From an uncultured Desulfospira sp. (lineage in GTDB: Bacteria > Desulfobacterota > Desulfobacteria > Desulfobacterales > Desulfobacteraceae), in the NCBI GenBank assembly GCA_963663165.1, contig OY760175.1, positions 2,880,001 to 2,944,000 on the forward strand: DNA of 64,000 nt, given 5' to 3'. Made by a program: the position numbers and the translations under genes. Below are positions 44,345 through 63,785 of this stretch, piece after piece; positions within the stretch are counted from its first letter, which is position 1; each line of letters starts with the position of its first letter. A model generated the notes under the pieces. The model ran no database searches, had not been told where the DNA came from, and saw only the letters and a list, made by a program, of their open reading frames with translations.

Positions 44345-45487
44345 CTACTCCCCTTTTAGCTGGGCCAGCTTCTTTTTTTTGGCCGCAAGGTCTTGTTCGT
44401 GGCTATAGATATATGTTGACTCTTTTTTAGAAGACCAGAAATCGTAAAACGCTTCTGCCCGGCCACTTTCAATATCATCTTCCAATTTCCGGATCTGATA
44501 TTCAAGCCTTGCGATTTCCGATGCAGTGGAGTCTGTTTCCGCGGTCCGGGCTGTCTGGGACCAGGTCTCACCGGATAGGACATTGTCTTCATCCAGGCGG
44601 CCTGCGGATGATGAACCGTCTGAATCATTTGAGTCCGAATCCGTTGAATCTGAGCCGGATGAATCGCTGGAATTAGAAGACACCAGGCCGGAATCTGAAC
44701 TATCCGTACTATCATCTGACGAACTTGCGGCCCGGGTCTGTGTCGAAGACTTTTTATCACCTGTTTTCAGTGCGGAACCAGTTCCTGTGGAATCTGTGCC
44801 GGAATGGGCACGGCTTTTCCCGGTAAGATACCGGGAAGATCTGCCGGGCGAATCCTGGGCCAGATGGCCTGATTCACGGGTATCATTGGAATTTGGATTT
44901 TTGTCAGCCGCCCAAGGGACTGGCCGGCCCCCATTGGCCTGATCAGTGGGGGGTGGCCCCATCCCGGGAGGGACAGGCGAGCCAAAGCGCTGGCGACTTT
45001 TTCCGGATTTTGACCGGCCCTTTTGATCGGGCGGGCCCGCGGCACTGCCGGGGGCCTGCCCCTTTTTGCTGACCTTTTCAGGGGGAAGCCAATTATTTTT
45101 TATGCTTTTGCCGGCCGGGCCGGTACCAACGGGGCTGAACGCATCGGCATCCGTGTAGGCGAAGCATCTGGCTGATTCAAAGTAATCATGGCTGTAAACC
45201 ACAGCATAATTATACCCTTTGAGCAATTTTTCCAGGACAGCTTCGAGGGGGACCCGGTCAAATGACAGGTCCTTTGAATAGTCGATAAAGGTTTCGGTAA
45301 TATAAATTTCAACATTGGCCTGATCGGCCAGGTCTATCAGAACCGATGCAACAGAGGCCTGGTTCTGATGGATACTCACAAGTCCCTGGTCACAGCTTAT
45401 ATTCAAAGGCCGGGCCAAAACCGGAACATCCGCCGCCCAGACAAGCAGGACAGCGGCAAACCATAGAATTTTAAACCCATCCTTCAT
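44345..45487 (-). CDS. Secreted hypothetical protein: secretin-N/STN-like domain + Pro-rich and Ser/Asp-rich linker + coiled coil
   Basis: Signal peptide; ASVASVLIDLADQANVEI...VPLEAVLEKLLKGYNY; SSDDSTDSSDS tract. Confidence 0.6.
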   Translation of the reverse strand: MKDGFKILWFAAVLLVWAADVPVLARPLNISCDQGLVSIHQNQASVASVLIDLADQANVEIYITETFIDYSKDLSFDRVPLEAVLEKLLKGYNYAVVYSHDYFESARCFAYTDADAFSPVGTGPAGKSIKNNWLPPEKVSKKGQAPGSAAGPPDQKGRSKSGKSRQRFGSPVPPGMGPPPTDQANGGRPVPWAADKNPNSNDTRESGHLAQDSPGRSSRYLTGKSRAHSGTDSTGTGSALKTGDKKSSTQTRAASSSDDSTDSSDSGLVSSNSSDSSGSDSTDSDSNDSDGSSSAGRLDEDNVLSGETWSQTARTAETDSTASEIARLEYQIRKLEDDIESGRAEAFYDFWSSKKESTYIYSHEQDLAAKKKKLAQLKGE

Positions 45488-45764
45488 TGCGTCATCGTTT
45501 GTTTCTCAGGAGTTGCCCTTAAAACCGCCTCAACGGCTTAACAACAGCGGCCTTACGGTCTATTCATCCTACATGAAGAACCCTTCGGGGACAATACTCT
45601 TTTTGGGCAGGGCCGCCGGCTATGGAGAAGGACGGCCGGAAAATTATGATTCCTTTGGACTGCTCGGTTGGTAACCGGAAACCAGATGTTGCCTACGCCC
45701 GGATTTGGTCTCCGGTCTCTTTTCTTCCGGTCTCCAGTCTCCGGTTTTCCGTCTCCGTTACTCT

Positions 45765-46691
45765 TTATAGAACAAAATCCTCCTTCTCCGCCAGGCCATC
45801 TCCTTGAAGAAGCTGTTCGGCCCCTGAAGGCACGGGCAGATGTTTAATCTTTTTGGGGACCCTGAACCGGGTCGGCGAAACCGGGGGCTTTTTCAGCAGG
45901 GTCCGCCAGCCGTTTTCCCGGTTGGCCCGGGCAATGTTTCCACTTCCAATGGGATCGAAATCAAGGGCCAGGGCCTGTTCAGGGGCTTGCAGCAGGTCAA
46001 TGACCAGACCATAGGAATAATTGAGTTGTGCGCCCAGATACTCCCGGTGATATGCGGGAACGATCTTTCTTGAAAATTCCAGAGACCGGACGAAAGACTG
46101 ATATTCCAGAAGTTCAATGGTGCCGTGGAACAGCTTTTTTTTAAATAAAAACCCGGGCTTTCCGGCTTTCATTTGTTTGCAAAGGGACCTGTCAGCCTCC
46201 CGGTTGGCCTGGCAGAAAAGTGCTGCGGCCTGGTTTGCCGGCCGGTTGACCCGGCTGTCGGCCAGCATTTCAATGTAGACGTGGCCCAGGCGCCCTGCCC
46301 TCAAACATCGGCCCATCAGATTGGGAACATAATAGTTATGGGCGGTAATATCGGCGGCCAGATGGGACAGATAGCCCAGGGCGTAAGTTTTGAGATAAGG
46401 GTTGTCTGCGGCGTCGTGCAAAAGGGCCAGACCGGTTTTCCAGTTATGGCTGTGCAACGGCTTGGCCCGGCTTCCCTTGCCGATGAAGATGTCCGCACTC
46501 AGGCATCCGTATAAAAAGACGGCCGGATCGGATAGAAGAAGCCGGGCGACCGCCAAAGGCAAAAGCTCAAGATTGTTCAGCACGGCATTGCCGATGGCCA
46601 TATGAACCCCCGGGCCCCATGCCAGGCAGACCGGGGCAACACCCAAAACGGCGATGAGGGTGTAAACCAATATCAGTGTCACTTTTTTCAT
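45765..46691 (-). CDS. Zinc-dependent phospholipase C family protein
   Basis: Signal peptide then WGPGVH; GYLSHLAADITAHNYYVP; HVYIE. Confidence 0.85.
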   Translation of the reverse strand: MKKVTLILVYTLIAVLGVAPVCLAWGPGVHMAIGNAVLNNLELLPLAVARLLLSDPAVFLYGCLSADIFIGKGSRAKPLHSHNWKTGLALLHDAADNPYLKTYALGYLSHLAADITAHNYYVPNLMGRCLRAGRLGHVYIEMLADSRVNRPANQAAALFCQANREADRSLCKQMKAGKPGFLFKKKLFHGTIELLEYQSFVRSLEFSRKIVPAYHREYLGAQLNYSYGLVIDLLQAPEQALALDFDPIGSGNIARANRENGWRTLLKKPPVSPTRFRVPKKIKHLPVPSGAEQLLQGDGLAEKEDFVL

Positions 46692-46734
46692 GGTTTGTAT
46701 AGATCCTTCCCGGGCAGCGGCAGGAAGCTTTGTT

Positions 46735-48126
46735 TCAAAGCAGCGGCGCAACCAGGCGGGCAATCCCTTCCACCGTGTCCCGGGCGATTCCCACGGGCCG
46801 GGTACCTTCATCGCTTTGGGCCATAAGGCCCTGCACCCAGTTGCTCACCGCGATCACATCCGGTCCGGAGTAAGCGAGCATCACGATTTCGTAGTTCAGG
46901 AAAAGGCTGCGCATGTCCATGTTGGCCGATCCCACAACGGCCAGCCTCTCATCGGAAACAATCACCTTGGCATGGACCATGTGCGGATATTTCATAATCC
47001 TGCCGCCGCACTGTTCCAGCTCGCGCAGGTGGGTGCCCCGGGCCAGGTCGGCCAGCAGATGGTTGGACCGCAACGGCACCACCACCCGCACGTCAACCCC
47101 GCGCAGGGCCGCAAGGCGCAGGGCCTGGGCCAGCGCTTCGTCCGGGACATAGTAAGGGGTGACAATCCAGAATCTGTTGTTTGAAGTAAAGGCTGCGGTC
47201 AGCAGGGCATCATAAATGGGATCTCCTGGAACATCCGGCCCTGAAGGGACCACCTGCATGATCCCCGGGCCGCTTTGGGCCGGATAATCAAGGCCTTTGG
47301 GGATAATGTCGACTTTTTCGCCACAGGCAAAGCGCCAGTCCGACTGGAACACCTCAAGATAATGGTGGACCGCAGGTCCGGTCAAGACAAAGGAAAGGTC
47401 CGTCCAGCGCTCCTTGCAGGGATGGGGCCCGATATATTCCCTGGCAATGTTGGTTCCGCCGGCCAGCACCACTTTCTGGTCGGCAATGGCGATTTTGCGG
47501 TGGTTCCTGAGGTTGGCCTTTCCGTGAAAAGGCGCCCGGAACAGCGGCATGAAATAGCCCACCTGTCCACCGTTGTTCAGCAGGGGGGAAAGAAACCGGC
47601 GGGTGGTGAACATGGAACCGACATCATCCAGAAGCAGACAGACACTGACACCGGCCGCGGCCTTGCGGGAAAGCCGTTCCACGATGTCCTGGCCCACCTC
47701 GTCGCGGGAAAGGATAAACGTGGTGATCAGGATCTGGTGTTCGGCGGTTTCAATCAACCGGACCAGTTCATTGTACACCTCCACTCCGGTGGGGCAAAGG
47801 CAAACCCGGTTGCCGCCGGTGGCCCCGGGGATACCGTAGCCGCGCAGCAATGTGTCAATGGGATCAGCCTGCCCGGCCGGCACGGTTTCCTGGATCTTTA
47901 AATGAATGGCTTTTTTGGTGCCCGCGTCCCGTTTGAGTTTGCGGCCGCCCAAAAAAAGATACAGGGGCACCCCAAGATAAGGCGCAAATACAATGGCCAT
48001 GAGCCAGGCAAACGCCGCCGAAGACGTCCGCTGCCTTCGCAGCACGGACAGCGCCAGGGCCGCAGCCAGAATAAACCCTGCGACAACGGCCAGATGACCA
48101 ATTAAAAGGTGCCATTTCAAAAGCAT
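46735..48126 (-). CDS. cls: Cardiolipin synthase (phospholipase D family)
   Basis: PLDc_N TM pair; NLRNHRKIAIAD and HAKVIVSD HKD motifs; GSANMDMRSLFLNYE. Confidence 0.9.
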   Translation of the reverse strand: MLLKWHLLIGHLAVVAGFILAAALALSVLRRQRTSSAAFAWLMAIVFAPYLGVPLYLFLGGRKLKRDAGTKKAIHLKIQETVPAGQADPIDTLLRGYGIPGATGGNRVCLCPTGVEVYNELVRLIETAEHQILITTFILSRDEVGQDIVERLSRKAAAGVSVCLLLDDVGSMFTTRRFLSPLLNNGGQVGYFMPLFRAPFHGKANLRNHRKIAIADQKVVLAGGTNIAREYIGPHPCKERWTDLSFVLTGPAVHHYLEVFQSDWRFACGEKVDIIPKGLDYPAQSGPGIMQVVPSGPDVPGDPIYDALLTAAFTSNNRFWIVTPYYVPDEALAQALRLAALRGVDVRVVVPLRSNHLLADLARGTHLRELEQCGGRIMKYPHMVHAKVIVSDERLAVVGSANMDMRSLFLNYEIVMLAYSGPDVIAVSNWVQGLMAQSDEGTRPVGIARDTVEGIARLVAPLL

Positions 48127-48213
48127 TCCAACTCCCCGGTATTTCCAGCAACAAAAACTTTGCAGAATATATCCCAACAGCAAAATAAATACCAGACTCA
48201 ACGCCGGCAGGCA

Positions 48214-48263
48214 CAGGGCAATCCCATGTAAAAAAGCCATCCATTCCGGAATGGGAAATAAGG
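48214..48263 (+). repeat. ~50-bp dispersed repeat family B, copy 3
   Basis: CAGGGCAATCCCATGTAAAAAAGCCATCCATTCCGGAATG. Confidence 0.8.
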
Positions 48264-48273
48264 AGAACTCCAA

Positions 48274-48515
48274 TATAACGGCCACGGGCCGCCCTGGTTA
48301 TCCAACCAAGCACCGCCCACAACAAATAATGAAACGGAAGATACCAGCAACGGTAGACTATAAATTGGGCACCGCAGGTGCTTCGCCCTCTTGTCTCTTG
48401 TTTCTTGTCTCCAGTTTCTTATAACGGCCACGGGCCGCCTTGGTTATCCAACCAAGTATCGCCCACAACGAATAATGAAAGTCTTATCACGCTGTTAGTG
48501 AGACTTTCATATAAA
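48274..48515 (-). repeat. Tandem of family D long form (48274-48423) and short form (48420-48515)
   Basis: Both begin TATAACGGCCACGGGCCGCC and share a TATA junction. Confidence 0.9.
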
Positions 48516-48542
48516 AATGTAGGGGGATTAGGCTGAAGGGAT

Positions 48543-50822
48543 TCAGCCTTCAGCCCCATCCCATTGGGCATACCGGTATCCGGGAGCGTAAAAAGACAGG
48601 GTTACCTCCCCGGGTCGGATGCCGGCGATTTGCCGCCCCATGTCATCAAAGGATATGTCATGGCTTAACCGGTCCGGGGAAAATGAATGGAAATGAAACA
48701 CATCAGCGGCTGACGGATCTTTGTAACTAAGGGTAATCACGCTGTCTTCGGGCAGGGCTGACAGCGTGACGGTAAACCCGGTCTGTTTCTGGATAACGTC
48801 CATCTCGACGGATTTGGGACAGGCCTTCCAGATTTCCAGGGAGGGGTCCCCCAGAACATGGTATATGGCAAAATGGCGTTTTATATTGATGCCGTCCCCC
48901 CAGTACCAGACCGGCAGGTATGCCTTGGCATAATTGAGGATATCGCCGATCCGGCTGTACCGGCCGGCGATAGGGGACACCGGGGGGGCGTTCTGTTCCG
49001 CATAAACCGGCAATATCCCGGGCCACAGGGCATCGAACAGGGCTTTCATCATCACGTCGCTGTACCAGGCACCGGCTTTGCGGGTGGCGGCGATCAGGGC
49101 CGGCACCCGGCCGGCCCTGATCAGGGCCTCGCTAAAGGCCCCCCGGGGGTTGGCGCTGTCAAAACATCCGGAAAGGCAGTTCAGGCTGAAAACAATTGAC
49201 GGTTCCTTGATGGTCCGGGTTCCCCGGTCCCTGGTTTCCTGGTCCATACCTAGGATATCCTGGTTGGTGAATCTGGGAATCTCCCATCCGTTGATATTGC
49301 CGTGTCCCCGGTGGGCCATGATCAGGCGGCCTTGCTTAAACGCGTTGAGGACGCTTGTTCTGGCCTGGTCCTCTGCCTGGAATTCAACGGTGCGGCGGTT
49401 GGTGCGCTCTATCTGGGCAATGGGCTGGCCGTTACAAAAACAGGTTGTCCGGTCATCCTCTTTAACAAAAATCTCCTCTGGTCTTAAATTAAATTGTTCC
49501 AAATGGTCATCAATGGATATCAGGGTTTTGACATAGTTGGTCACCGACCGTTCGGGATCCACCGCCTCAACCCCTTTTTCCAGTTCTCCGGCACAGGTGA
49601 TATTCTGATAATAGCCTGGATCCAGAGGCGGGTGCTGCTCATATTCAATGATTTGACGGATGACGGCCATGCCGGCACCATGGCCGTCATTGTCTGCTTC
49701 CAAAGGGATTCTGCCCACACTTACCCACGGAAACGAAAGCCCGGTTGCGGTTTCGTCTTCCCGGGTGGAATAATAATAATCCGTGAGTATGGTTTCGCCG
49801 GAAAGCCGGTCATAGGCGGGATCCGGGAAAATTTTCGGCTGAATATACCCCGTGTCCCCCATCAGCAGCAGATACCGAAGCCTTGCCCCGGGTGTGTCCC
49901 GGCATGTTTTGATATACGCCCTGAGGCGGTCCGGATCATCGGCCATGTTGCCGGCTGCCTTGACGGCCGTGGCCAGACCTTTCTGATTTTTCCACTTTGC
50001 CAGGGTAAGGGCCTCTTGTTCAAATGCCTCATGGTAAATGATCAGCAGTTCTGCCGCCGTGACATCCGCAGGTTCTTTGGGCGTTAACGTGAACCGGGGG
50101 CCGGGGCCTGAGCCCCGGGTCAAAGCCCCGGGCGGGTCTATCGGCGGTAATTTGGGGTTGATCAGCATGTTGTTGTAAAGGCCGTCAAGGGGCGGCAACG
50201 GGGCGGCCCTATCCAAAGGGACCATTGTCAACGGCATTTCAGCCTCAAGTTCGGCACAAAAGGTTAATTTGTCTTTCTGGGGGGTATACTGAAAGGGGGT
50301 GACATGAATGAGGATCACATGCTGCCCCTGGATTTCAAAAGAGCCTTCGGCCATGACCCGGTGTTTGGGAAAATGGTCATCATCGCCAAACCCGTCATAT
50401 CCCTGATCGTAATCATGGGCCTGGCCGGCATCCACTGTCCAGTTATCCTGGGAGGTCATTACCCAGGCATCTGCCGGCAGGCCTTTTTCCATGATCGCCA
50501 CATCAACGATGGGGGTCTCAGTAATGTCTTCAGGCAGGGGCACCCGGCAAGGTCCCGGCACACGGACATACCGGCCAAAGGACGGGATCAGCGGCTGTTT
50601 GTTCTTGCTGATATAACCGCATCCGGGAATACCGAGCTGAATCACATCTTTGGCTCTCTGGTTCTTAAACTGGACAGAGACATGGGAGGTCTGGTACCCC
50701 GAAAAAGCCACCGTAAACTTCAGGATCACGCCTTGGGCATGGCTGTCCACTATGTTGACTTGCCTGACAACAGGCCTTAAATCGTTTCCATTTCCCCCGA
50801 AAGCGACGGTTCTCACACTCAT
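48543..50822 (-). CDS. C25 (gingipain-clan) cysteine peptidase with propeptide-like N-terminus
   Basis: LAKWKNQKG, YLLLMGD, TDYYY, VGRIP, HRGHG (His), SLNCLSG (Cys), FSEAL, YHVLGDP; no evident signal peptide. Confidence 0.85.
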   Translation of the reverse strand: MSVRTVAFGGNGNDLRPVVRQVNIVDSHAQGVILKFTVAFSGYQTSHVSVQFKNQRAKDVIQLGIPGCGYISKNKQPLIPSFGRYVRVPGPCRVPLPEDITETPIVDVAIMEKGLPADAWVMTSQDNWTVDAGQAHDYDQGYDGFGDDDHFPKHRVMAEGSFEIQGQHVILIHVTPFQYTPQKDKLTFCAELEAEMPLTMVPLDRAAPLPPLDGLYNNMLINPKLPPIDPPGALTRGSGPGPRFTLTPKEPADVTAAELLIIYHEAFEQEALTLAKWKNQKGLATAVKAAGNMADDPDRLRAYIKTCRDTPGARLRYLLLMGDTGYIQPKIFPDPAYDRLSGETILTDYYYSTREDETATGLSFPWVSVGRIPLEADNDGHGAGMAVIRQIIEYEQHPPLDPGYYQNITCAGELEKGVEAVDPERSVTNYVKTLISIDDHLEQFNLRPEEIFVKEDDRTTCFCNGQPIAQIERTNRRTVEFQAEDQARTSVLNAFKQGRLIMAHRGHGNINGWEIPRFTNQDILGMDQETRDRGTRTIKEPSIVFSLNCLSGCFDSANPRGAFSEALIRAGRVPALIAATRKAGAWYSDVMMKALFDALWPGILPVYAEQNAPPVSPIAGRYSRIGDILNYAKAYLPVWYWGDGINIKRHFAIYHVLGDPSLEIWKACPKSVEMDVIQKQTGFTVTLSALPEDSVITLSYKDPSAADVFHFHSFSPDRLSHDISFDDMGRQIAGIRPGEVTLSFYAPGYRYAQWDGAEG

Positions 50823-50869
50823 TTTATCCCCCTGCTGCCATTAAACCGGCATGTTCCGGAAACCTTCGA

Positions 50870-51262
50870 TTACCACTTCACACAGACCCTTCTGCCGCCG
50901 ATTCGAAAGCAGAAATTGTCCAGGGGAATAGCCAGAGGCAAAATTTCACCGACTTCGCATTCTACATTTGGAACAGCGTCACCGTTGGTGTCCTTAACCT
51001 CCACTGTCCAGCCGTCCTGAATTGAAAAATGAATTTTCCTTTTTGAGTTAACGGGGCTGAGCGCCTTGCCGTTGACCGTCACCAGGGGGAAATAATAGTC
51101 GTCGCCCTGGGCCAGATCATTGCACTCAAACTGCTTTGAAATCCACGACGTGACCATCTCGAAATCAATTTCAACGCCGTTTTTGTCTTTGATGGCAATG
51201 TCATAATCCTGGTTGGGATCAATCCCAATGCTGACCACGCGGCCGATGTAATCCATAGACAT
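50870..51262 (-). CDS. Small hypothetical protein with C-terminal C-x8-C motif
   Basis: Strong AAGGAG RBS; co-oriented between receptor and protease; ends NFCFRIGGRRVCVKW. Confidence 0.75.
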   Translation of the reverse strand: MSMDYIGRVVSIGIDPNQDYDIAIKDKNGVEIDFEMVTSWISKQFECNDLAQGDDYYFPLVTVNGKALSPVNSKRKIHFSIQDGWTVEVKDTNGDAVPNVECEVGEILPLAIPLDNFCFRIGGRRVCVKW

Positions 51263-51288
51263 AATGTTTCTCCTTTATTTAATGGTTT

Positions 51289-51414
51289 GTGTTTGGACGA
51301 AAAGTCACCTGCCTGCTGCGTTGCAGGAAAATTTGCAATCCTCACAACCCTAATGGTTGCTCCGGTTGCAAATTTTCCTGCGCCTTGCATCTGGGCAACT
51401 TTTCGTCCAAACAC
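51289..51414. mobile_element. 126-bp MITE-like element family C
   Basis: Perfect 17-bp TIR GTGTTTGGACGAAAAGT / ACTTTTCGTCCAAACAC; internal arms GCAGGAAAATTTGCAA / TTGCAAATTTTCCTGC. Confidence 0.85.
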
Positions 51415-51500
51415 GGACAGATCTTCGTTCAGACATTATATAACTCACTGAAGGGCCGGACCATGCCGCCCTAAAAGCCTTCAGCCTGAACCCCTTCAGC

Positions 51501-54500
51501 CTAAAAGTGCCATGAGATGTTGACAAACACCTGACGTTCCGGATTGATCCTGGGGTTAAAGGGATCTGTGTCCTGAAATTCAAATGTGTTGTCAAAAATA
51601 TTGGTCCCGACAATGGAGACACTGCCCCCGGACTCCTGAAACCGCCACCCGATCTGGGCATCCACCACCCAGAACTGATCCGATATCCCGTTACCGGTTG
51701 CCCCCCGGTAATCCTGATGAAAGTATGAGGCCTTTAACCGGGCCAGAAACCCTGAGGGATGGAAAAACCCAAACCCCAGGGGGATGCGGTGGGTTTTGAT
51801 ATTGAGATAGGCTTCAGGGTCCGGGACATCGTCATCGGATTTTTGCCGTTCAAAAAAATACTCGGCACTCACCGCGACGGTCTTGCCAATGGGTCGGAAA
51901 ACATAGCACCGATATACGGTTTCTTCCCATTGATACCGGATCACATCGCCAAAGTTGAATTCATCAAACCACAGGTATAGCGGGGTGTCGTTTTCCCGGT
52001 GTAAAATTTCCATGCCGGCATACAGGCGGCCTGAAAACCGATGGTCCACCGCCATGCCGTACAGATTAGACACGGTGCCGGTATTGTCACTGTAAAATTG
52101 GTTAAACCCGGCCACCTGGGTGGGCTCTATGGTCTGGCCCGAGACAAGGGAGCGGACAACGGTTCTCGCCATGGCCCCGCGCACGGTGGTCTGTTCATTG
52201 AGGGTCCAGGTCAGGCCGATTTTAGGGTTGAGTTTATCCTCATCCGCTTCACGGCTGTCTATTGAATCCAGGCTCAGCCCCAGGCGCCAGACCATATTTT
52301 CAGGATACCGGCAGGACAGATACCCATACCCGTTGATATGCTCCGTCTTTGAATCCGATGTTTCCAGGTCACTTGAACGCAAAAGTTCACCCAAAATCTC
52401 ATGGGTGACCCGGGTATCCACACGGCTTTTCTCATCTGAATCCAGATGATAATAACCGACCCCGGAAATAAGGCTTATCCCGTTCTTTTGGAACCGGTGC
52501 TGGACTTCGGCCAGAACGCTGTCCTGGTCCAATGAAGCCTTGCTGTCCATCTCGGATTCAATGCCAAAACCAAACCCGTCCAGCTGGGTCTGGGCCGCAC
52601 TGAAGGTGGTGGTATAATCGGCCCGGTTAAAGACAGCCGACCCTAAAATCCGGGATTCCCGGCTCAGTGTGTGGGATACCCCGAGCCGGATTTTGCGGGT
52701 TGTCTCCTTCTGCCTTAAGGTGTCATGAATCGGGGAGGTTTCAAGCAGCTGCTCCAGAAACCCAAAAGTCCGGTCATCATACCGGCCCTCTAGTTGAAAG
52801 CTTGTTTCCGGGGTCAGGGCCATGTGGAAAAATGCATTGGCCATGTCTTTTTCAAGATCGTTATTTTCCCCGAAACCGTCGGTGCCATAATGATACTGGC
52901 CCAGGCTGTAAGCAATATTGTCCCGCAATCCATAATGAACGATCTCCTCTCCCCGGGTGTTGTTGCTGCCGGCCACACCGTTGACCTGGAAATCCAGCCG
53001 GTTTCGTTCAAACAAAGCGGTGTATTCATTCAAAGAGGCCTTGCTGGGCCATGTCCCGCCAAGGATGCCGGCAGATGTCGCATCTTCCAGCTGGGGCTGG
53101 ACAGGATTGGCCGTCACCGGCGATAGCAGCTGGGCCTGAAGCAGCTCGCTGACCCGGGCAATTTCATGGCGGGGCAGGACATCATAGGAATCGGCCAGAA
53201 ACCGATGGGCCGAATAATTATCCGGATCACTGGCAAGGGATTTATACCCCTCCAGCAGGGCCAGCTGCCCGAATCCCAGTACATCATAGATCCTTGCAAG
53301 GCCGGCACTGCGGGAGGCCAGGTCCTGATCCAGCAGGAACCTGGACCGGTAAACGGCCCGGTTGTCGTTGAGTTCAATGGATTTCTGGAGATCTTCCAAT
53401 GCCGCCACCGGCCGGTTGTCTGCCTGTTTTTGAAGGGCACTGTACAACCAGGGGGTGGGGTCATTGGGATCCAGGCTTTTGGCGGCATTGAATTGTTTTT
53501 CGGCCAGCCCGCCCTGATTTTCTTCATCAAAGGCCTTTCCCAGATAACTGCGAACCAAAGCATTGTCGGGATCAAGGCCCATAGCGGTTTCCATCTGCTG
53601 CCGGCCTTTGGCCAACTGGCCCCGCCGGATCAAGGCAAGCCCGAGCCCCAAACGGGGCAAGGGGTCGGTCTGGTCCAGGCGGATGGCCGTTTCAAAAGCG
53701 GCCATGGCCTGTTGGATCCTGGCGCCGGTAAGGCGGGTATACCCGAGAACCGTCTGGGTCCGGCTGATGTCAGGATTTAAGGCCACGGCTTTCTGGGCTG
53801 AGCTCCCGGCCGGTTCAATGTCGCCAAACGCCAGTTGAAGCTGGGCTAAACGGGCCCATAAAAGGGCGTTTTCCGGGTCCAGGGCCACGGCTTTTTTCTG
53901 GGATTCCAGGGCCCCTTTCAGGTCAAACACCGCCTGACGGGCACAGGCCTGCGCCGACCAGGCAACGGCCAGGTCCGGATCATGGGAAACCGCGTTTTCT
54001 GAAAGATTCACGGCGGCTTCTTTCCGGTTTTGTGCCGTGGCGATAATGGACAGCAGGGACAAGGCCAGGGCCGGGGCACTTGGCCTCAGGCGTTCAATAT
54101 CCGCTTTGGCCTTTTCCACACGGCCGGCAAACAGGAACAGTTCGGCCCGGTAGGCATAAAAGAGCGCTGAGCGCTGATGCATGGAAATCCGTTCAAGGAC
54201 CTCAACGGCCTCCACCAGCCGTCCGACCCGGCGAAAGGCCATGGACTGCTGAATAATTTCCCGGGCAGGCAAGGAAAATTCGCCAAGGCGAAAATCGGAC
54301 AGCGAAGGATAGTAAAGCGCCCATTGGACCGCATCCTTGGGTCTGACCATGATCAGCCTTGCCGGGGCCTTTCCTTCCAGGGCCCGGGCGGATTGGCCCG
54401 GTTCAAGGGCCAGCCGCCCCTGGGCATTGGCCACATGGACCCGCCCTGAATAAACCGTGACCCGGGACTGGCCGGGCAGAACCGTGACCAGAAATTGTGT

Positions 54501-54908
54501 GCCGTCAACGGCGGCGGTGGCAAAGGGGGTGTCAATCTTCAAATCCATGGCCTTTTGGCTGAAAAACAGGGCAGCTCCCTGCAAAAGCCTTGTCAGAAAA
54601 GGCCGGTCTTCCTCAATCCCTGGCAGGGAAAGCAGGGCATTCTGGTCCAGTTTAACCGTGGCCCCGTTGTTTAATTTGATGGTGACAGAGCCCAAGGCCC
54701 CGGTCCGGACCATATGGCCGGGACAAAGCATGGTATCCGGCCGGGCAGGATACCATGGGCCATCCGCGTTATCCTTTGTCTCCACCATCCCCTTTATGGC
54801 CAGCACCTGGGAGGGATGGTCACAAGGATACCCTGCCGTTATGCCTGTACATAAGACAACAACAGATATAAACAGGCCAAGCCTGGCTGATCTTTTTTTA
54901 GAAGCCAT
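51501..54908 (-). CDS. Outer-membrane receptor: FecR domain + TPR repeats + TonB-dependent-receptor-like beta-barrel
   Basis: Signal peptide; IDTPFATAAVDGTQF...VYSGRV (FecR); DAVQWALYYP; multiple A..LDP TPRs; amphipathic strands ending in Phe. Confidence 0.85.
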   Translation of the reverse strand: MASKKRSARLGLFISVVVLCTGITAGYPCDHPSQVLAIKGMVETKDNADGPWYPARPDTMLCPGHMVRTGALGSVTIKLNNGATVKLDQNALLSLPGIEEDRPFLTRLLQGAALFFSQKAMDLKIDTPFATAAVDGTQFLVTVLPGQSRVTVYSGRVHVANAQGRLALEPGQSARALEGKAPARLIMVRPKDAVQWALYYPSLSDFRLGEFSLPAREIIQQSMAFRRVGRLVEAVEVLERISMHQRSALFYAYRAELFLFAGRVEKAKADIERLRPSAPALALSLLSIIATAQNRKEAAVNLSENAVSHDPDLAVAWSAQACARQAVFDLKGALESQKKAVALDPENALLWARLAQLQLAFGDIEPAGSSAQKAVALNPDISRTQTVLGYTRLTGARIQQAMAAFETAIRLDQTDPLPRLGLGLALIRRGQLAKGRQQMETAMGLDPDNALVRSYLGKAFDEENQGGLAEKQFNAAKSLDPNDPTPWLYSALQKQADNRPVAALEDLQKSIELNDNRAVYRSRFLLDQDLASRSAGLARIYDVLGFGQLALLEGYKSLASDPDNYSAHRFLADSYDVLPRHEIARVSELLQAQLLSPVTANPVQPQLEDATSAGILGGTWPSKASLNEYTALFERNRLDFQVNGVAGSNNTRGEEIVHYGLRDNIAYSLGQYHYGTDGFGENNDLEKDMANAFFHMALTPETSFQLEGRYDDRTFGFLEQLLETSPIHDTLRQKETTRKIRLGVSHTLSRESRILGSAVFNRADYTTTFSAAQTQLDGFGFGIESEMDSKASLDQDSVLAEVQHRFQKNGISLISGVGYYHLDSDEKSRVDTRVTHEILGELLRSSDLETSDSKTEHINGYGYLSCRYPENMVWRLGLSLDSIDSREADEDKLNPKIGLTWTLNEQTTVRGAMARTVVRSLVSGQTIEPTQVAGFNQFYSDNTGTVSNLYGMAVDHRFSGRLYAGMEILHRENDTPLYLWFDEFNFGDVIRYQWEETVYRCYVFRPIGKTVAVSAEYFFERQKSDDDVPDPEAYLNIKTHRIPLGFGFFHPSGFLARLKASYFHQDYRGATGNGISDQFWVVDAQIGWRFQESGGSVSIVGTNIFDNTFEFQDTDPFNPRINPERQVFVNISWHF

Positions 54909-55048
54909 ACTGTCCCTTCTTTTTTAAAATGTCAGAATGATGTCAGAGATGGTTGCCAGTCAGAATGATACCGGGCTGTTTTCAGATTGTTGCGTTCAAG
55001 GATAGGGGTCATTGTATGAGAAATGACACGGTCTTGCAACCTAAAATA

Positions 55049-55078
55049 CGTAGGGGCGATTCATGAATCGCCCCTACG
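55049..55078. repeat. GTAG-type REP palindrome
   Basis: Perfect 30-bp palindrome CGTAGGGGCGATTCATGAATCGCCCCTACG. Confidence 0.85.
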
Positions 55079-55122
55079 CCCCTGCAAACCCGGTCTCGCT
55101 TCTTCCCGTCTCCGGTTGCCGC

Positions 55123-57354
55123 TCATTTTCCCACCGCAATCCGCCCGTCCCATTCCCTGTCCGGCGCTGTTTTTTTATAGGCCTCACACAGCCCGAGATA
55201 GAACAGGGACGGGCCGTCATTCTCCCGGCAGGCCATGCATTCCGTGAACCCGTGTGCGGCCTTGTCAAAGTCGCCTTGTTTGAAAAGATCAAGGGCCTTT
55301 TCGAACATACCGCAAAGGGTTTCGTCCTGTGGGGTTGACTCGCCGGTACGGCCAATTAACTCGTAGACGGGAAGGGGCGCGGATTTTCCGGCCAGAACAA
55401 AATCCCCCAGTTTACGGCTTAAGATCCCGTCCACCCCGGACAGGACGTCCCCTGAAACCAGAACCCAGGTCCCCAGTTTCTTGTTCAGGCTTTCCAGGCG
55501 GGAGGCCGTGTTAACGGCATCTCCCATGGGGGTATAATCATAATGGTCGATGCTGCCGATATTTCCGTAAAAGAACTGGCCGGAATGAATCCCGATGCGC
55601 GTGGGCAGAACCGGGGCATTGGGCTGCAAATGGTGCTGTTCAACCGCACTGATAATGTCCAGGGCCGCAAGGCAGGCCTTTTTGCACAGGTTTTGATCAG
55701 GGGACAGGCCGACCCACAGCACCAGCATCCCGTCACCGACAATTTTGGACAAAATACCGCCGTGCCGGGCAATGGGTTTGGAAATTTCACCATAGTATTG
55801 GTTCATCAGCCGTCCCAGCTCCATGGGAGATACGGTTTCCGAAAGGGCTGTAAAGTGCTTTGCATCGGTGAACATGCAAGCCCCATGGACCATCTGGCTG
55901 CTATTCCGGATATCGGATACATTTTCCACCAGTTGATCCACCAGATGATCCGGGACATAATAGCCAAACACCTGGCGGATTCTGGCCCGCTCTTTTTTAA
56001 TCTGCCGGTTCTTCCATAAAACCGATAGAAAGAATGCTGCAGGCGCCTGTATGATAATGGGAATCACCAATGGATACCAGGCCCCTGAACGGCTGAATGC
56101 AAAAAAGGAGACGGTCAGCCAGGCGCCGCTTAAACCGGATACGGCCAAGGCTGAGACACGGGAGGAAGGAAACCAGCAGATCAGGCCCAGCAAGATCCCC
56201 CAGGCCAGAACAAACCACTGGTGATGCCCCATGGACAGACGTTGGATCTGGCAGTCCTCCCAAAAATTTGAAAAGGCCGTGGCCAGTATTTCAACCCCGT
56301 TTAAATCAACCCCGTCAGACCGGGAAAACACCGTGGGAAAACTGTCTTTCTGCTTGGCGGAAATAAGCTCGGAAAGGCCGACAAACACCACCGTTCCCGG
56401 CGGTATGTCCCTATCCATTGCCTCAACGCAGGACAGGGTGGCAAATGAGCCCGACGGTCCGTAAAAATTCAGGTACCGGGTGTTGCCCTGATATAATTTA
56501 ACAAGGGTTTTAAGGACCTTTCTTTTTCGGGGGTCCGCCTTGTCCGGCGGCTGCTTTTCCAGGTCCTCCAAAAGGAGTTGAAATTGATCCGGATGGGTGT
56601 CAAATAAATTTTTTACCCCGCGTATCCGGGTTTCGATCCGGTCAGAGGGCATATGGCCGGCATGGGTGTGAAGCAGCTTTTCTACGGCATCCGGGTCAAT
56701 TTTTCCCAACAGGCGATAAAAATCGCCATGATCCTGCCGGGATAAAAAATGAACCAGGATTACCGGCAGGGTGGGCCTGCCGTCAAGATCGGGTTTAAAG
56801 GTCCAGTACCGGCTGACCTGGCGCGGTGTCTTGGGCAGGGCAAACGGAGCACATGCCGCGGCATTTTGCCTGAGAACGGGAATCACGGGAAAAAACTTCC
56901 GGGCGGACAGCCCGGTTATCCGGCCGGACTGGTCCCTGAGACGAATCATTTCAAAGTCTTCATGCAGCAGAACGTTTCCGGCCTTTTGAATGGATTGGGC
57001 CAGGATGAGATCTTCTTGTTTTCGGCCCTCATGCTTAAAACTGACATCAAAGCATATGGCCGCTGCCCCATTACCGGACAAATGGTCAATCAGTCCGGCC
57101 AGAAAGGCCCTGGGCCATTCCGGGGTTTCAGACAAAGAATCCCCGCCCATGCGCTTGTCAAGGCTTACAATCAGGACGTTGGAAGGCGGCGGAACCGGCC
57201 CCCTTAGTTTGAACAGGAGGCCAAGGCCGTATCTTTCCTCTAATCCAAGCCCTCCTAAAGGGCCGGCGAAGAGCCCTAAAACGGCGGTAAACGCGCCCAG
57301 CAAGACGATGCGGGTAAGGTGCCGGCCCATGGAATTTCCCAAGATGCTCCCCAC
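55123..57354 (-). CDS. CHASE2-domain class III adenylate cyclase
   Basis: LFKLRGP, WPRA, AICFDV, GVEILATA (CHASE2); three TMs; FTDAKHFTALSE, KIVGDG, RIGIHSG, YTPMGDAVNTASRLE. Confidence 0.92.
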   Translation of the reverse strand: MGSILGNSMGRHLTRIVLLGAFTAVLGLFAGPLGGLGLEERYGLGLLFKLRGPVPPPSNVLIVSLDKRMGGDSLSETPEWPRAFLAGLIDHLSGNGAAAICFDVSFKHEGRKQEDLILAQSIQKAGNVLLHEDFEMIRLRDQSGRITGLSARKFFPVIPVLRQNAAACAPFALPKTPRQVSRYWTFKPDLDGRPTLPVILVHFLSRQDHGDFYRLLGKIDPDAVEKLLHTHAGHMPSDRIETRIRGVKNLFDTHPDQFQLLLEDLEKQPPDKADPRKRKVLKTLVKLYQGNTRYLNFYGPSGSFATLSCVEAMDRDIPPGTVVFVGLSELISAKQKDSFPTVFSRSDGVDLNGVEILATAFSNFWEDCQIQRLSMGHHQWFVLAWGILLGLICWFPSSRVSALAVSGLSGAWLTVSFFAFSRSGAWYPLVIPIIIQAPAAFFLSVLWKNRQIKKERARIRQVFGYYVPDHLVDQLVENVSDIRNSSQMVHGACMFTDAKHFTALSETVSPMELGRLMNQYYGEISKPIARHGGILSKIVGDGMLVLWVGLSPDQNLCKKACLAALDIISAVEQHHLQPNAPVLPTRIGIHSGQFFYGNIGSIDHYDYTPMGDAVNTASRLESLNKKLGTWVLVSGDVLSGVDGILSRKLGDFVLAGKSAPLPVYELIGRTGESTPQDETLCGMFEKALDLFKQGDFDKAAHGFTECMACRENDGPSLFYLGLCEAYKKTAPDREWDGRIAVGK

Positions 57355-57378
57355 TTGTTTTTAACGGTTGAACAACGG

Positions 57379-58416
57379 TTATTGGCCCAGGTAGGTTTTG
57401 GGGTTCTCGTTGGCTATTTTCCAGAATAAATCTTCGCCCAGGGCATACCGCAGATCTATGGACAGCCGTTTCTCCGAGTATTGTTCACACTCAGCCATAT
57501 AAAAATCAGACCCGAACAAAACCTTATCCAGCACATCGTTATTCTGGAGCAGCATTTTTAATAATGGAACATTCTCAGTCAGGTTAAACACTGTATAGGA
57601 GATATCTGTATACAAATTCGGATATGCGCGGCTTTTGATCATTTCCAGTATTTTCTGAAGCCAGGTTGATGCCGCCTGGTTCCGGGGAAAATCCAGATGC
57701 TTTTGCCATTCGCCGCTGCCGCCGAAATGGGCCAGGCAGATTCGAAGTTCAGGGTATGCCTTCATCACGGTTTGGTACCGGTCCGGATCTGCCAGGGCAT
57801 GGGCCGCCTGGGGGCTCAGCGCTTTGGAGGTCGCTGTCCCGGGAGAGCAGTGGGATAAAAGGGGGATATCCTTTTCTGCCATATAGGGGTATATCCGGTT
57901 CATCAAGACCTCATGGTCCGGGCTGTAGCCAAGGGGCGGGTAGATTTTAACCCCTTTGAACCCGTGATCCTCGACCAGGGTGCGCAGCCGGTCAAGGGCA
58001 TTGTTCCGTCTGGGTTCGATATGGGCAAAGGGAATCAGGATATCCTTGTAATCTTCCTTCTTTGAAAGCCTTGCCAGTTCGGCATGCTGCCCGTCAATGT
58101 CCTCAACAACGCTGCCCGCCCCCATAAAGGCCATATCCATGGGAAGGATAACAAATCTGGTTCCTGTAGGATAATATCCCATTAACTGCTTTAAATTCCC
58201 TTCCTGGGTTTCCCTGTATGCGGATTTCAAGAATGCCGCGTACCGGTTGATTTTATCGTTTTTTGTCCAGGGGACGATCCCTTTCATGATGCCGCTTAGA
58301 CCGGCCCGCAAATATTGATTTCGTATGGCGGCAACCAGACGGAACGGAAAGTAGCCGTCCGGAAGGTTTTCATGGGTAAAAATATGCGCATGGCAATTGT
58401 AAATCACACGATCCAT
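57379..58416 (-). CDS. Amidohydrolase_2 family metal-dependent hydrolase
   Basis: NCHAHIF, GVKIYPPLGY, SHCS, LAHFGG, YTDISY, LFGSDF. Confidence 0.88.
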   Translation of the reverse strand: MDRVIYNCHAHIFTHENLPDGYFPFRLVAAIRNQYLRAGLSGIMKGIVPWTKNDKINRYAAFLKSAYRETQEGNLKQLMGYYPTGTRFVILPMDMAFMGAGSVVEDIDGQHAELARLSKKEDYKDILIPFAHIEPRRNNALDRLRTLVEDHGFKGVKIYPPLGYSPDHEVLMNRIYPYMAEKDIPLLSHCSPGTATSKALSPQAAHALADPDRYQTVMKAYPELRICLAHFGGSGEWQKHLDFPRNQAASTWLQKILEMIKSRAYPNLYTDISYTVFNLTENVPLLKMLLQNNDVLDKVLFGSDFYMAECEQYSEKRLSIDLRYALGEDLFWKIANENPKTYLGQ

Positions 58417-58487
58417 TAAAGCCTCCTTTAGCGGGTTTGCGGCGTGAATATTTTTTTGGCGTTTTACCGTGGCCGTCTAATTTTTTT

Positions 58488-58639
58488 GTAACTATTCAGC
58501 TAATGCTGAAAACTAAACAAAACCAGGGGCCGTAACTGCTCATCAGTGCTTCATATTTGTTTAGTCAGGACTTCGTAGCATACTTTTGCTATGTGAGAAG
58601 GCCTGAATGAGCGAAGATGGGGCACTGCTGAACAGTTAC
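58488..58639 (+). mobile_element. 150-bp MITE-like element family A
   Basis: TIR GTAACTATTCAGC...GCTGAACAGTTAC; near-identical to 4550-4701; flanked by T-runs. Confidence 0.85.
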
Positions 58640-58752
58640 ATTTTTTTTAAGAACGGGGAACCCAGCCGGCCGGGATATGTAAGGCAATCAGAGGTTGCAA
58701 TAATTTTTGTTTAACACACCTGCCATGTTAGGGACAAGCGGAATTTCCGCCT

Positions 58753-58868
58753 CCGGTCTCCGGTTTCCAGTTTCCGACCTCCTGTTTCCTGTTTCTTGCT
58801 TCCTGCTTCCTGTTTCTTGTTTCTTGTTCCCTGTTTCTTGTTTCCTGTTTCTTGTTTCTTGTTTCTTG
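58753..58868. repeat. Heptamer tandem repeat (GTTTCTT/GTTTCCT)n
   Basis: About 16 degenerate 7-mers ending just before the ribB promoter. Confidence 0.9.
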
Positions 58869-58875
58869 CCACTTG

Positions 58876-58904
58876 TTGACATTCCCCCAAGCTTTGGCTA
58901 TGGT
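58876..58904 (+). promoter_or_regulatory. Sigma70-type promoter for the FMN riboswitch-ribB leader
   Basis: TTGACA-N17-TATGGT. Confidence 0.65.
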
Positions 58905-58940
58905 ACCCCGGGCCTGAAAATGTCAGGTCAAATTTGTTTT

Positions 58941-59089
58941 TGTTCTCAGGGCGGGGTGAAATTCCCCACCGGCGGTATCCCGGAGCAATTCTTCCGGGGA
59001 GCCCGCGAGCGCTTTGCAGCCATCTGCGAAGGCCAGCAGACCCGGTGAGACGCCGGGGCCGACGGTTACAGTCCGGATGAAAGAGAATA
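58941..59089 (+). ncRNA. FMN riboswitch (RFN element)
   Basis: AGGGCGGGGTGAAATTCCCCACCGGCGGT, AGCCCGCGAGCG, AGCAGACCCGGTGAGACGCCGGGGCCGACGGTTACAGTCCGGATGAAAGA; upstream of ribB. Confidence 0.97.
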
Positions 59090-59210
59090 ATTACGGTACG
59101 CATTCTAACCAAAGCCGTCGGCCGTTAACAGCCGGTGTACGGTTTTGGGTTTTCCGTTTTTTATTCCCCCTGATTCATGACGGTTATGATTACTTTTAAG
59201 GAGATGTATC

Positions 59211-59867
59211 ATGAATCAGAGTCTGTTAACTCGATTTGGAAATTCTGAACAACGGGTGGAAAACGCGCTCAAATCCCTCCGGCAGGGCAATGGCGTCCTG
59301 GTGACTGATGATGAAGACCGGGAAAATGAAGGGGACCTTATCTTTAGTGCCCAGTCCCTTACCGCCGGCCAGATGGCCATGATGATCAGAGAATGCAGCG
59401 GCATTGTCTGCCTGTGCCTGACCCCCGGAAAAGTTGAATCCCTCAAGCTCCCCATGATGGTGGAAAACAACCAGAGCCGGTACCAGACCGCTTTTACCGT
59501 TTCCATAGAAGCGGCCCAGGGGGTAACCACGGGGGTATCGGCCAAAGACCGGGTCCGGACCGTTCAGGCTGCGGCAGCCGCCGATGCCAAACCCGAAGAT
59601 CTCAACAGTCCGGGCCATGTATTCCCCTTGCGGGCCAGACCCGGCGGGGTTCTTGAACGGGGCGGCCATACCGAGGCCACGGTGGATCTCATGCAGCTGG
59701 CAGGGCTTGACCCTGTCGGGGTCCTGTGCGAACTGACCAACCCCGACGGCACCATGGCACGGCTTGCACAAGTTGTGGCCTTTGCCGAAAAAAACGACTT
59801 CCCTGTGCTGACCATTGAAGACCTGGTCCTTTACCGGAAAAAAATGGACTTTCAAAAAGCCGGATAA
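59211..59867 (+). CDS. ribB: 3,4-dihydroxy-2-butanone-4-phosphate synthase
   Basis: [42 protein letters not shown]. Confidence 0.97.
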
Positions 59868-63200: not shown

Positions 63201-63265
63201 ACTTGTACGAAATAGTGGACAAGTTTAAAATTAATCATTATACTTGTGCTATAAAAAGAACAAGT
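63201..63265. promoter_or_regulatory. Two palindromic operators upstream of yefM-yoeB
   Basis: ACTTGT-N12-ACAAGT at 63201-63224 and 63242-63265. Confidence 0.75.
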
Positions 63266-63277
63266 TTGGAGAGCATT

Positions 63278-63532
63278 ATGAGAATTGTCAATTTTAGCGA
63301 AGCACGAAACAATTTAAAGACTGTTTTAAATCAAGTGGCAGACGATGCTGATTATACAATCATTACACGTCGTGATTCAGAGGACGCTGTAGTAATGTCA
63401 CTGGAAACTTTCAATAGTTTCATGGAGACTTTTTACCTTCTCAGGTCTCCTGCTAATGCGGCACATTTAACGAAATCTATCGAACAATTTAAAAATGGGA
63501 AGGTCCAGGAAAGAGACATAATAGATGGATAG
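63278..63532 (+). CDS. yefM: Phd/YefM family antitoxin
   Basis: VNFSEARNNLK, IITRR...AVVMS, ETFYLLRSPANAAHL. Confidence 0.93.
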   Translation: MRIVNFSEARNNLKTVLNQVADDADYTIITRRDSEDAVVMSLETFNSFMETFYLLRSPANAAHLTKSIEQFKNGKVQERDIIDG

Positions 63533-63785
63533 AAAATTAGCCTGGACCGAAGAAGCATGGAAGGACTATATCTACTGGCAAACACAAGACAAAAAGACAC
63601 TGAAAAGAATTAACAAACTCATTAATGACACAATGAGGCAGCCATTTGAGGGCATAGGGAAACCAGAACCACTGAGAGAAAATCTGTCTGGGTTTTGGTC
63701 CCGAAGAATTGATGATACAAATCGTTTGGTTTACGCTGCCGATGATGAATATCTCACAATCATTTCATGCAGATATCAGTACTAA
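63525..63785 (+). CDS. yoeB: Txe/YoeB family mRNA interferase toxin
   Basis: AWKDYIYWQTQDKK, PFEGIGKPEPL, WSRRIDDTNRLVY, ISCRYQY. Confidence 0.95.
   Translation: MDRKLAWTEEAWKDYIYWQTQDKKTLKRINKLINDTMRQPFEGIGKPEPLRENLSGFWSRRIDDTNRLVYAADDEYLTIISCRYQY

Follow-up and report, generated by a model that had tools for sequence, protein, structure and literature searches.

A conserved unit of CHASE2 cyclase, FecR-TPR-barrel receptor and small Cys-hairpin gene in an uncultured Desulfospira sp., with a possible role in self-encoded peptide sensing

In Sinorhizobium meliloti, the FecR-TPR-barrel protein NsrA is encoded beside a CHASE2 cyclase in the system NsrA-CyaK (CyaD1/D2)-Clr (PMC7529298, PMC13001267, PMC5498481), and the accessible part of the first of these papers reports that NsrA and CyaK respond to the cytoplasmic protein uL2 in cell extracts, the known signal of the pair being a foreign ribosomal protein. 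According to the accessible passages of two further papers, a horizontally spread cluster of the Campylobacterota likewise contains a CHASE2 adenylate cyclase with FecR outer-membrane and TPR proteins (PMC9239204), and the Burkholderia BiofilmReg operon encodes a FecR-domain protein and a CHASE2 sensor (PMC5192318). As far as these passages go, the pairing of cyclase and receptor has already been published (PMC7529298, PMC13001267, PMC5498481, PMC9239204). The signals of CHASE2 domains and NsrA-type receptors are largely obscure, the one studied case being a moonlighting ribosomal protein. Here, a locus of this kind was analysed in a 64,000-nucleotide (nt) stretch of the genome of an uncultured Desulfospira sp. 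(contig OY760175.1, positions 2,880,001 to 2,944,000; this whole stretch is called the window below). Five minus-strand open reading frames (ORFs) at 48543..58416 encode, in gene order, an amidohydrolase, a cyclase, a receptor, a small protein and a protease, and the conserved unit consists of the CHASE2 cyclase, the FecR-TPR-barrel receptor and the small Cys-hairpin gene, which are represented in the window as follows:

55123..57354, minus strand: CHASE2 class III nucleotide cyclase of 743 amino acids (aa), core part, recognised by Pfam and by its catalytic and ATP-specifying residues
51501..54908, minus strand: NsrA-like outer-membrane receptor of 1135 aa, core part, recognised by Pfam, AlphaFold2 and hhalign
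50870..51262, minus strand: protein of 130 aa, treated as an atypical member in the small-partner position on the basis of its position, its Shine-Dalgarno site, a ratio of nonsynonymous to synonymous substitution rates (dN/dS) of 0.13 and a C118-x8-C127 tail

The arrangement differs from each of the described systems. The receptor gene precedes the cyclase gene in S. meliloti, whereas the order in the window is the reverse, and the window has no adjacent Crp gene, unlike NsrA-CyaK-Clr. In the Campylobacterota cluster, FecR and TPR are separate proteins, a phosphodiesterase is included, and the passage available mentions neither a small partner nor a protease (PMC9239204); in the accessible part of the Burkholderia paper, the output of BiofilmReg is a histidine kinase and the LysM-FecR protein has no barrel (PMC5192318). 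No description of the small partner, or of a link to a C25 protease, was found in a literature search, subscription papers being outside its reach.

The cyclase gene starts with GTG (an alternative ATG lies at 57330), and its product matched the Pfam families CHASE2 (3e-21) and Guanylate_cyc (2e-16). The residues by which such enzymes carry out catalysis and specify ATP are well established; D497, K537, D541, T608, N615, R619 and K657 were all retained in an alignment to CyaB, and by its residues the cyclase is of the adenylyl type.

The receptor matched FecR (5e-14) plus TPRs in Pfam, and its AlphaFold2 model, built from an alignment of 61 homologues, was confident (mean predicted local distance difference test value (pLDDT) 88.8, predicted template modelling score 0.87). 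In this model, a signal peptide is followed by the FecR domain (~33-186), a TPR rod (190-608) and a 22-strand barrel (637-1134) with a C-terminal Phe. The best structural matches of the barrel were TonB-dependent receptors, and the protein resembles the TonB-dependent cell-surface signalling receptors FpvA and FecA in its 22 strands and C-terminal Phe. Unlike them, it has no TonB-type plug (residues 609-636 are a coil from the last helix to the first barrel strand, and no Pfam plug match was obtained), its TPR rod and FecR head are fused to the barrel, and its output is a cyclase instead of an extracytoplasmic function sigma factor. Comparison of the receptor profile by hhalign with a 1202-aa FecR protein encoded on S. 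meliloti pSymB gave a probability of 99.9% over 1014 columns at 20% identity. The gene of the latter directly precedes a CHASE2 cyclase gene (locus L047), and we infer from its size, replicon and neighbour that this protein is NsrA. The receptor belongs to a large family, with 2085 representatives at E values up to 1e-30 (TPR-only matches included); 45 of 301 class genomes and, at a stricter cut-off, 6 of 301 phylum genomes have a receptor; the window receptor lies on a long branch (0.87) that it has in common only with the copy of a sister Desulfospira sp. genome. The preliminary description of this locus, made from the letters of the window, had named five co-oriented genes with their domains and catalytic residues, including the catalytic and ATP-specifying residues of the cyclase, and had likened the cyclase-receptor pair to CyaK and NsrA. 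ORF analysis, Pfam and the alignments confirmed the former, and the hhalign match together with the adjoining CHASE2 cyclase supported the latter.

The composition of the unit was determined across 120 receptor loci outside the genus, of which 40 came from class genomes (strongest first) and 80 were the best of 513 metagenome loci. Among the 117 loci with a strong receptor match, a cyclase gene was located at most 3 kb from the receptor gene in 82, the contig was too short in 29, and the remaining 6 had room but no cyclase. For the small gene, the sister locus was added (121 loci) and 31 loci with a distant or truncated receptor or with less than 700 nt downstream were dropped, which left 90. 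A co-oriented ORF of 55-200 aa with a Shine-Dalgarno site was present at most 330 nt after the receptor in 75 of these 90 loci, compared with 302 of 1395 long ORFs from the window's own genome, and a Cys-pair or S/N-P-hairpin tail was seen in 59 of the 75 candidates against 37 of the 302 controls; the counts of 75 and 59 take in the sister locus and one duplicate pair. A hidden Markov model (HMM) of the family was then constructed from a set from which 16 candidates had been removed by hand (the sister, the duplicate and 14 of spurious or differing appearance), and in five-fold cross-validation 45 of 59 held-out members scored above the best control (6.4 bits). With a tail matrix derived from 73 unfiltered candidates, 35-36 of 73 held-out members exceeded the 99th control percentile. 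Given these cross-validation and tail-matrix results, the small partner family is therefore considered real, and the small Cys-tailed protein, whose linkage had been guessed from one genome, turned out to be the product of a conserved third gene.

The sequences of the small partners are hypervariable, with a mean column identity of 9% compared with ~68% in the receptor TPR region, and their similarity climbs mainly once the receptors exceed 70% identity. Variable small proteins that track close receptors are as expected for cognate pairs, and shared descent predicts the same; region-wise covariation between receptor and partner was weak throughout (Spearman 0.08-0.17) and located no binding site. 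No family above the cut-off was obtained for 12 typical partners searched against Pfam and 8 against NCBIfam, and an Atlas search with a typical partner returned only unnamed clusters, under 0.9. Of 127 loci, 15 carry a Crp gene and 14 a gene for a GAF-sigma54 activator, neither being adjacent in the window, and the best Crp homologue in the window genome shares 30% identity with a locus-linked Crp.

The small gene of the window is the first co-oriented small gene 3' of the receptor and is preceded by a strong Shine-Dalgarno site. Its low dN/dS and the synteny in the sister genome indicate that it is a real gene. The protein has no signal peptide and matched no Pfam family above the cut-off; its C-terminus is C118-x8-C127, the tail is identical in the sister genome, and a low-confidence model (pLDDT 53) predicts hairpin strands at 117-121 and 124-128 with a Gly turn between the two Cys residues. 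Homologue searches returned only the sister copy and nothing among longer proteins, the Atlas search gave no usable match, a fold search with the poor model reached a best Z of 4.5, and a search of the genome with the family HMM yielded no further copy (best E 0.16). In the tail matrix trained without the window protein, 0 and 5 of 301 controls scored at or above its tail. It is accordingly treated, by position and tail, as a putative atypical counterpart that diverges in step with its divergent receptor, membership of the family being unproven. Co-folding of receptor residues 270-1135 with the small protein gave a score of 0.32 against 0.01 for the best control, the runs agreeing in at least 46% of contacts with a partner pLDDT of at least 47. 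Among solved pairs, 116 of 157 reached the co-folding mark, as did 2 of 215 mismatched pairs, and those reaching it at a score of 0.60 or under comprised only 18 of the 157 solved pairs and both mismatches, so that the predicted binding of the two proteins receives weak support from this model.

Several observations concern the variety of the receptor loci. In 30 of 69 loci (in the receptor-partner gaps of L009, L050, L078 and L087, for example), the small gene is preceded at 45-130 nt by an additional, orphan strong Shine-Dalgarno site. Such a site was seen for 5 of 231 other genes of these loci, and is absent from the window; it recalls STAB-SD, which is reportedly a stabiliser of mRNA. A short ORF behind this extra site was considered and rejected, none being conserved. 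A convergent sigma-54 activator, mostly with GAF, is located just past the small gene in L008, L010, L013, L020, L066, L078, L110 and L113 and is a candidate for a second output route. In L023, L024, L025, L029, L075, L105 and L144, the receptor is followed by a secreted Cys-rich protein that is larger (185-470 aa) and lacks the hairpin tail, and which we regard as a second partner type; MMPL genes and a convergent cyclase gene are often found in these loci. At L011:9029-9718, the receptor is followed by a tandem pair of paralogous small genes, with no adjacent cyclase and with a subtilase on the opposite strand, and L067:4649-7079 contains the receptor, a small gene, a lipoprotein-like gene and then a co-oriented papain-family protease. 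Receptor genes interrupted by stops or frameshifts (L017, L030, L036, L039 and L147) suggest that the module decays frequently. In the S. meliloti strain of L047, the NsrA-like gene and a DUF5706 gene (L047:6142-6687) are divergently oriented and the CHASE2 cyclase is split across two frames (L047:10426-12374).

The two outer genes of the block are the following:

57379..58416, minus strand: Amidohydro_2 metallohydrolase of 345 aa (Pfam 4e-20), a lineage-specific neighbour, 24 nt before the cyclase
48543..50822, minus strand: C25 (clan CD) cysteine protease of 759 aa with propeptide, a lineage-specific neighbour, recognised by Pfam, dyad and tree

The protease matched Peptidase_C25 (4e-39) and Propeptide_C25 (1e-5), and H507, G508 and C549 are kept, being shared by 65, 65 and 66, respectively, of the 67 sequences in the alignment, in agreement with the His/Cys dyad noted earlier. 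It resembles the gingipains and PorU in its propeptide and its catalytic domain with His-Gly and Cys, but differs from them in the lack of a signal peptide and in its score of 50.7 bits against the PorU cut-off of 420. Since a hydrophobic N-terminus was absent from all 66 homologues, the protease is assigned to a cytoplasmic C25 subfamily; the named members among its relatives are archaeal. Its gene lies 47 nt past the small gene and is probably co-transcribed with it. In a midpoint-rooted FastTree phylogeny, the window protease forms a clade with five proteins, including the sister copy (support 0.998).

The nearest C25 relatives in the class are informative in their own right. Four of the six are located in apparent peptide-modification clusters, which shows that the C25 subfamily can sit with peptide precursors. 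These clusters (L149:7082-17033, L150:6934-16883, L151:7001-16945 and L153:7232-16709) come from two families and contain a 1200-aa zinc-ribbon/cyclase/AAA/TPR protein, a DDxxD protein of 329-338 aa, which we take to be prenyltransferase-like, a radical S-adenosylmethionine (SAM) enzyme and a precursor-like ORF of 74-75 aa ending in Asp-Tyr, converging on the C25 gene, and more radical SAM genes are found upstream. The precursor and the DDxxD protein had no Pfam or NCBIfam match, no description of them was found in the literature search, and neither had a match in the window genome.

Searches with the amidohydrolase returned neither a solved relative nor a plasmid match, and at 1e-40 none of 300 other phylum genomes contained a match. 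Two close relatives (69% and 50%) occur in genomes that are not among the receptor carriers, with no receptor or CHASE2 cyclase within ~10 kb; one of the two, a single case, lies 2 kb from a cyclase-TPR gene. Co-occurrence with the cyclase-receptor pair in other genomes, which the preliminary description had named beforehand as the check on its circuit, was seen for neither outer gene, the C25 profile and the amidohydrolase both having no match in the 120 receptor loci outside the genus. Many of these contigs are short, with at least 1.5 kb downstream in 80 and at least 3.2 kb upstream in 71 of 117 loci. With its own relatives sitting elsewhere, the amidohydrolase drops out as a conserved part of the circuit and is best read as a neighbour acquired in this lineage.

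Within the genus, the synteny of the whole five-gene block is kept in the one sister genome, and dN/dS relative to that genome was 0.13 for the amidohydrolase, 0.23 for the cyclase, 0.26 for the receptor, 0.13 for the small gene and 0.22 for the protease; all five genes are under purifying selection. Each is present in one copy in the 6.74-Mb genome (BLAST). In a third genus genome (100% complete, 6% contamination), no match was found for the receptor, the amidohydrolase, the protease or a neighbouring cardiolipin synthase, and the entire ~14-kb stretch, which extends beyond the five genes, is missing. The additional genes of this stretch, at 44345-48285 on the minus strand, encode the cardiolipin synthase, a Zn-dependent phospholipase C-like protein and a low-complexity STN-like protein that has a paralogue elsewhere, and they are absent from the third genome just as the five-gene block is.

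We give an even chance to the reading that, within the conserved three-gene unit, the small protein serves the receptor as a self-made ligand and switches on the synthesis of cyclic AMP (cAMP) across both membranes; the fixed place of the Cys-hairpin gene after the receptor is counted in favour of it. A disulfide would close the hairpin after its exit from the cytoplasm, the closed hairpin would dock on or in the receptor barrel, the TPR rod and FecR head would relay the docking change to the periplasmic CHASE2 domain, and the resulting cAMP would act via a Crp-type regulator. As the small protein has no signal peptide, lysis or a non-classical route would be its most likely way out of the cell, and once released it could signal kin damage or density. 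Should the ligand be cytoplasmic and set free by lysis, this would resemble the response of NsrA to uL2 in extracts, as reported in the available part of PMC7529298. The wider proposal, that NsrA-type receptors with self-encoded hypervariable disulfide-hairpin ligands constitute a Gram-negative form of peptide signalling, for kin recognition or as a lysis alarm, that is coupled to cAMP across both membranes, is held with somewhat less than even confidence. Of the peptide-sensing cAMP circuit first suggested for this locus, the cyclase, the receptor and the small gene stand as a conserved core, but the protease and the amidohydrolase do not belong to its conserved parts.

A number of points weigh against the ligand reading. 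No single export route is apparent, as the N-terminus is hydrophobic in 32 of the 75 small partners (8 with a lipobox) and not in the other 43. No small gene was detectable in 15 of the 90 loci, and in S. meliloti L047 none lies between or after the two genes. The tail patterns were defined after the candidates had been seen, and the controls came from one genome and include spurious ORFs. The window protein itself scored 1.4 bits on the family HMM, while its own shuffles reached 8.4, it has no S/N-P motif (found before the hairpin in 39 of 75 members), and across the cross-validation folds 0-15 of 301 controls equalled or exceeded its tail.

The main rival, which we consider unlikely but well short of negligible, is that the small protein acts as an accessory subunit, be it plug, assembly factor or antagonist, and quiets the plug-less barrel, the true ligand being environmental. 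The strict position after the receptor, the receptor model without a plug domain and the 8 lipoprotein-like members among the 75 would be accounted for in this way, and the weak co-folding score fits equally well; on the other hand, 43 members, the window's included, lack a hydrophobic N-terminus with which to enter the periplasm, and the hypervariability of the partners beside the well-conserved TPR region also argues against such a role. The same anatomy of TPR and barrel without a plug, with the small gene directly 3' of the receptor, could instead point to an exporter and its cargo, in a Slam/type XI-like manner, the cyclase serving to monitor export, and the second upstream Shine-Dalgarno site in many loci suggests high expression. 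The Slam barrel has 14 strands, which counts against this interpretation of a 22-strand barrel that matches TonB-dependent receptors; many of the small partners lack a Sec signal, and the studied homologue acts in perception according to the accessible part of PMC7529298, and the exporter is accordingly judged quite improbable. Finally, the 130-aa ORF could be unrelated to the partner family, its tail being a chance likeness and the locus a cyclase-receptor pair among unrelated genes. The failure of the window protein on the family HMM, the 37 of 302 control ORFs that also fit the loose tail pattern and the single homologue found for the small protein all speak for such a coincidence, which is nevertheless hardly credible in view of the exact position, the strong Shine-Dalgarno site, the low dN/dS with an invariant tail and the rank in the tail matrix.

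A circuit complete in this lineage only would also involve the protease, the cytoplasmic C25 enzyme cutting the 130-aa precursor immediately ahead of its hairpin and so yielding a cyclic peptide sensed by the receptor. The 47-nt gap between the two genes is kept in the sister genome, both proteins lack a signal peptide, as do all the protease homologues, the window protein without the S/N-P motif could need another processing route, and the C25 relatives in peptide-modification clusters are compatible with such a function. However, C25 is absent from the 120 other receptor loci, and a Pfam scan of 300 neighbour proteins (150 of 175 from class loci and 150 of 175 from metagenome loci, first 420-450 residues only) detected one co-oriented protease, of the papain type (L067), one opposite-strand subtilase (L011) and unrelated hydrolases. 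C25 was found in 12 of 301 class genomes, and of the 10 outside the genus a single one has a receptor, on another contig. Moreover, the window C25 does not group in the tree with the cluster-associated enzymes, and the cardiolipin synthase shows the same presence pattern in the genus, which makes co-presence unspecific. Both this maturation circuit and the related proposal of hairpin-ligand signalling with a gingipain-family cytoplasmic protease recruited in this lineage to free the hairpin are therefore regarded as improbable. The protease is best read, like the amidohydrolase, as a neighbour acquired in this lineage: its adjacency to the small gene, here and in the sister, holds, but its linkage to the circuit finds no counterpart in receptor loci outside the genus. 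A link confined to the window receptor's own sub-lineage is possible, because this receptor has a long branch and no close relative except the sister.

Under the self-made-ligand reading, a partner encoded at a fixed position means that each locus would bring its own candidate ligand, and cognate and swapped pairs could be assayed for cAMP. If the reading is true, a peptide-communication channel is added to the Gram-negative anaerobes. In either case, the protease and the amidohydrolase are removed from the conserved core of this locus.

The gaps in the gene order from amidohydrolase to protease measure 24, 214, 238 and 47 nt, and those of 214 and 238 nt hold repeats that recur throughout the genome (40 and 160 BLAST hits, respectively), in accordance with the short or repeat-filled gaps of the preliminary description. 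They contain the following elements:

55048..55079, minus strand: 14-bp palindromic hairpin with a T-rich tail, terminator-like, a genome-wide repeat (fold z -6.1)
55011..55039, minus strand: sigma-70-like promoter match (9 of 12) upstream of the receptor gene, of which the sister genome retains the two hexamers
51289..51414, no strand assigned: palindromic repeat resembling a miniature inverted-repeat transposable element, between receptor and small gene (fold z -9.8), missing in the sister genome

The hairpin with its T-run, followed by a promoter-like site in the gap between cyclase and receptor, makes a single five-gene transcript doubtful, and suggests two putative units, amidohydrolase-cyclase and receptor-small gene-protease. 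The terminator-like hairpin has another sequence in the sister genome, and promoter-like matches in the region are at chance level (11 found, 8.8 expected).

Additionally, dispersed repeat families at 48286-48542, 51289-51414 and 58480-58650, all different, gave ~620, 160 and 277 BLAST hits. On the plus strand, an FMN (flavin mononucleotide) riboswitch precedes a DHBP (3,4-dihydroxy-2-butanone 4-phosphate) synthase gene (ribB) at 58938-59867, with a heptamer tandem tract upstream at ~58735-58880, and a YefM/YoeB toxin-antitoxin pair is located at 63203-63785.

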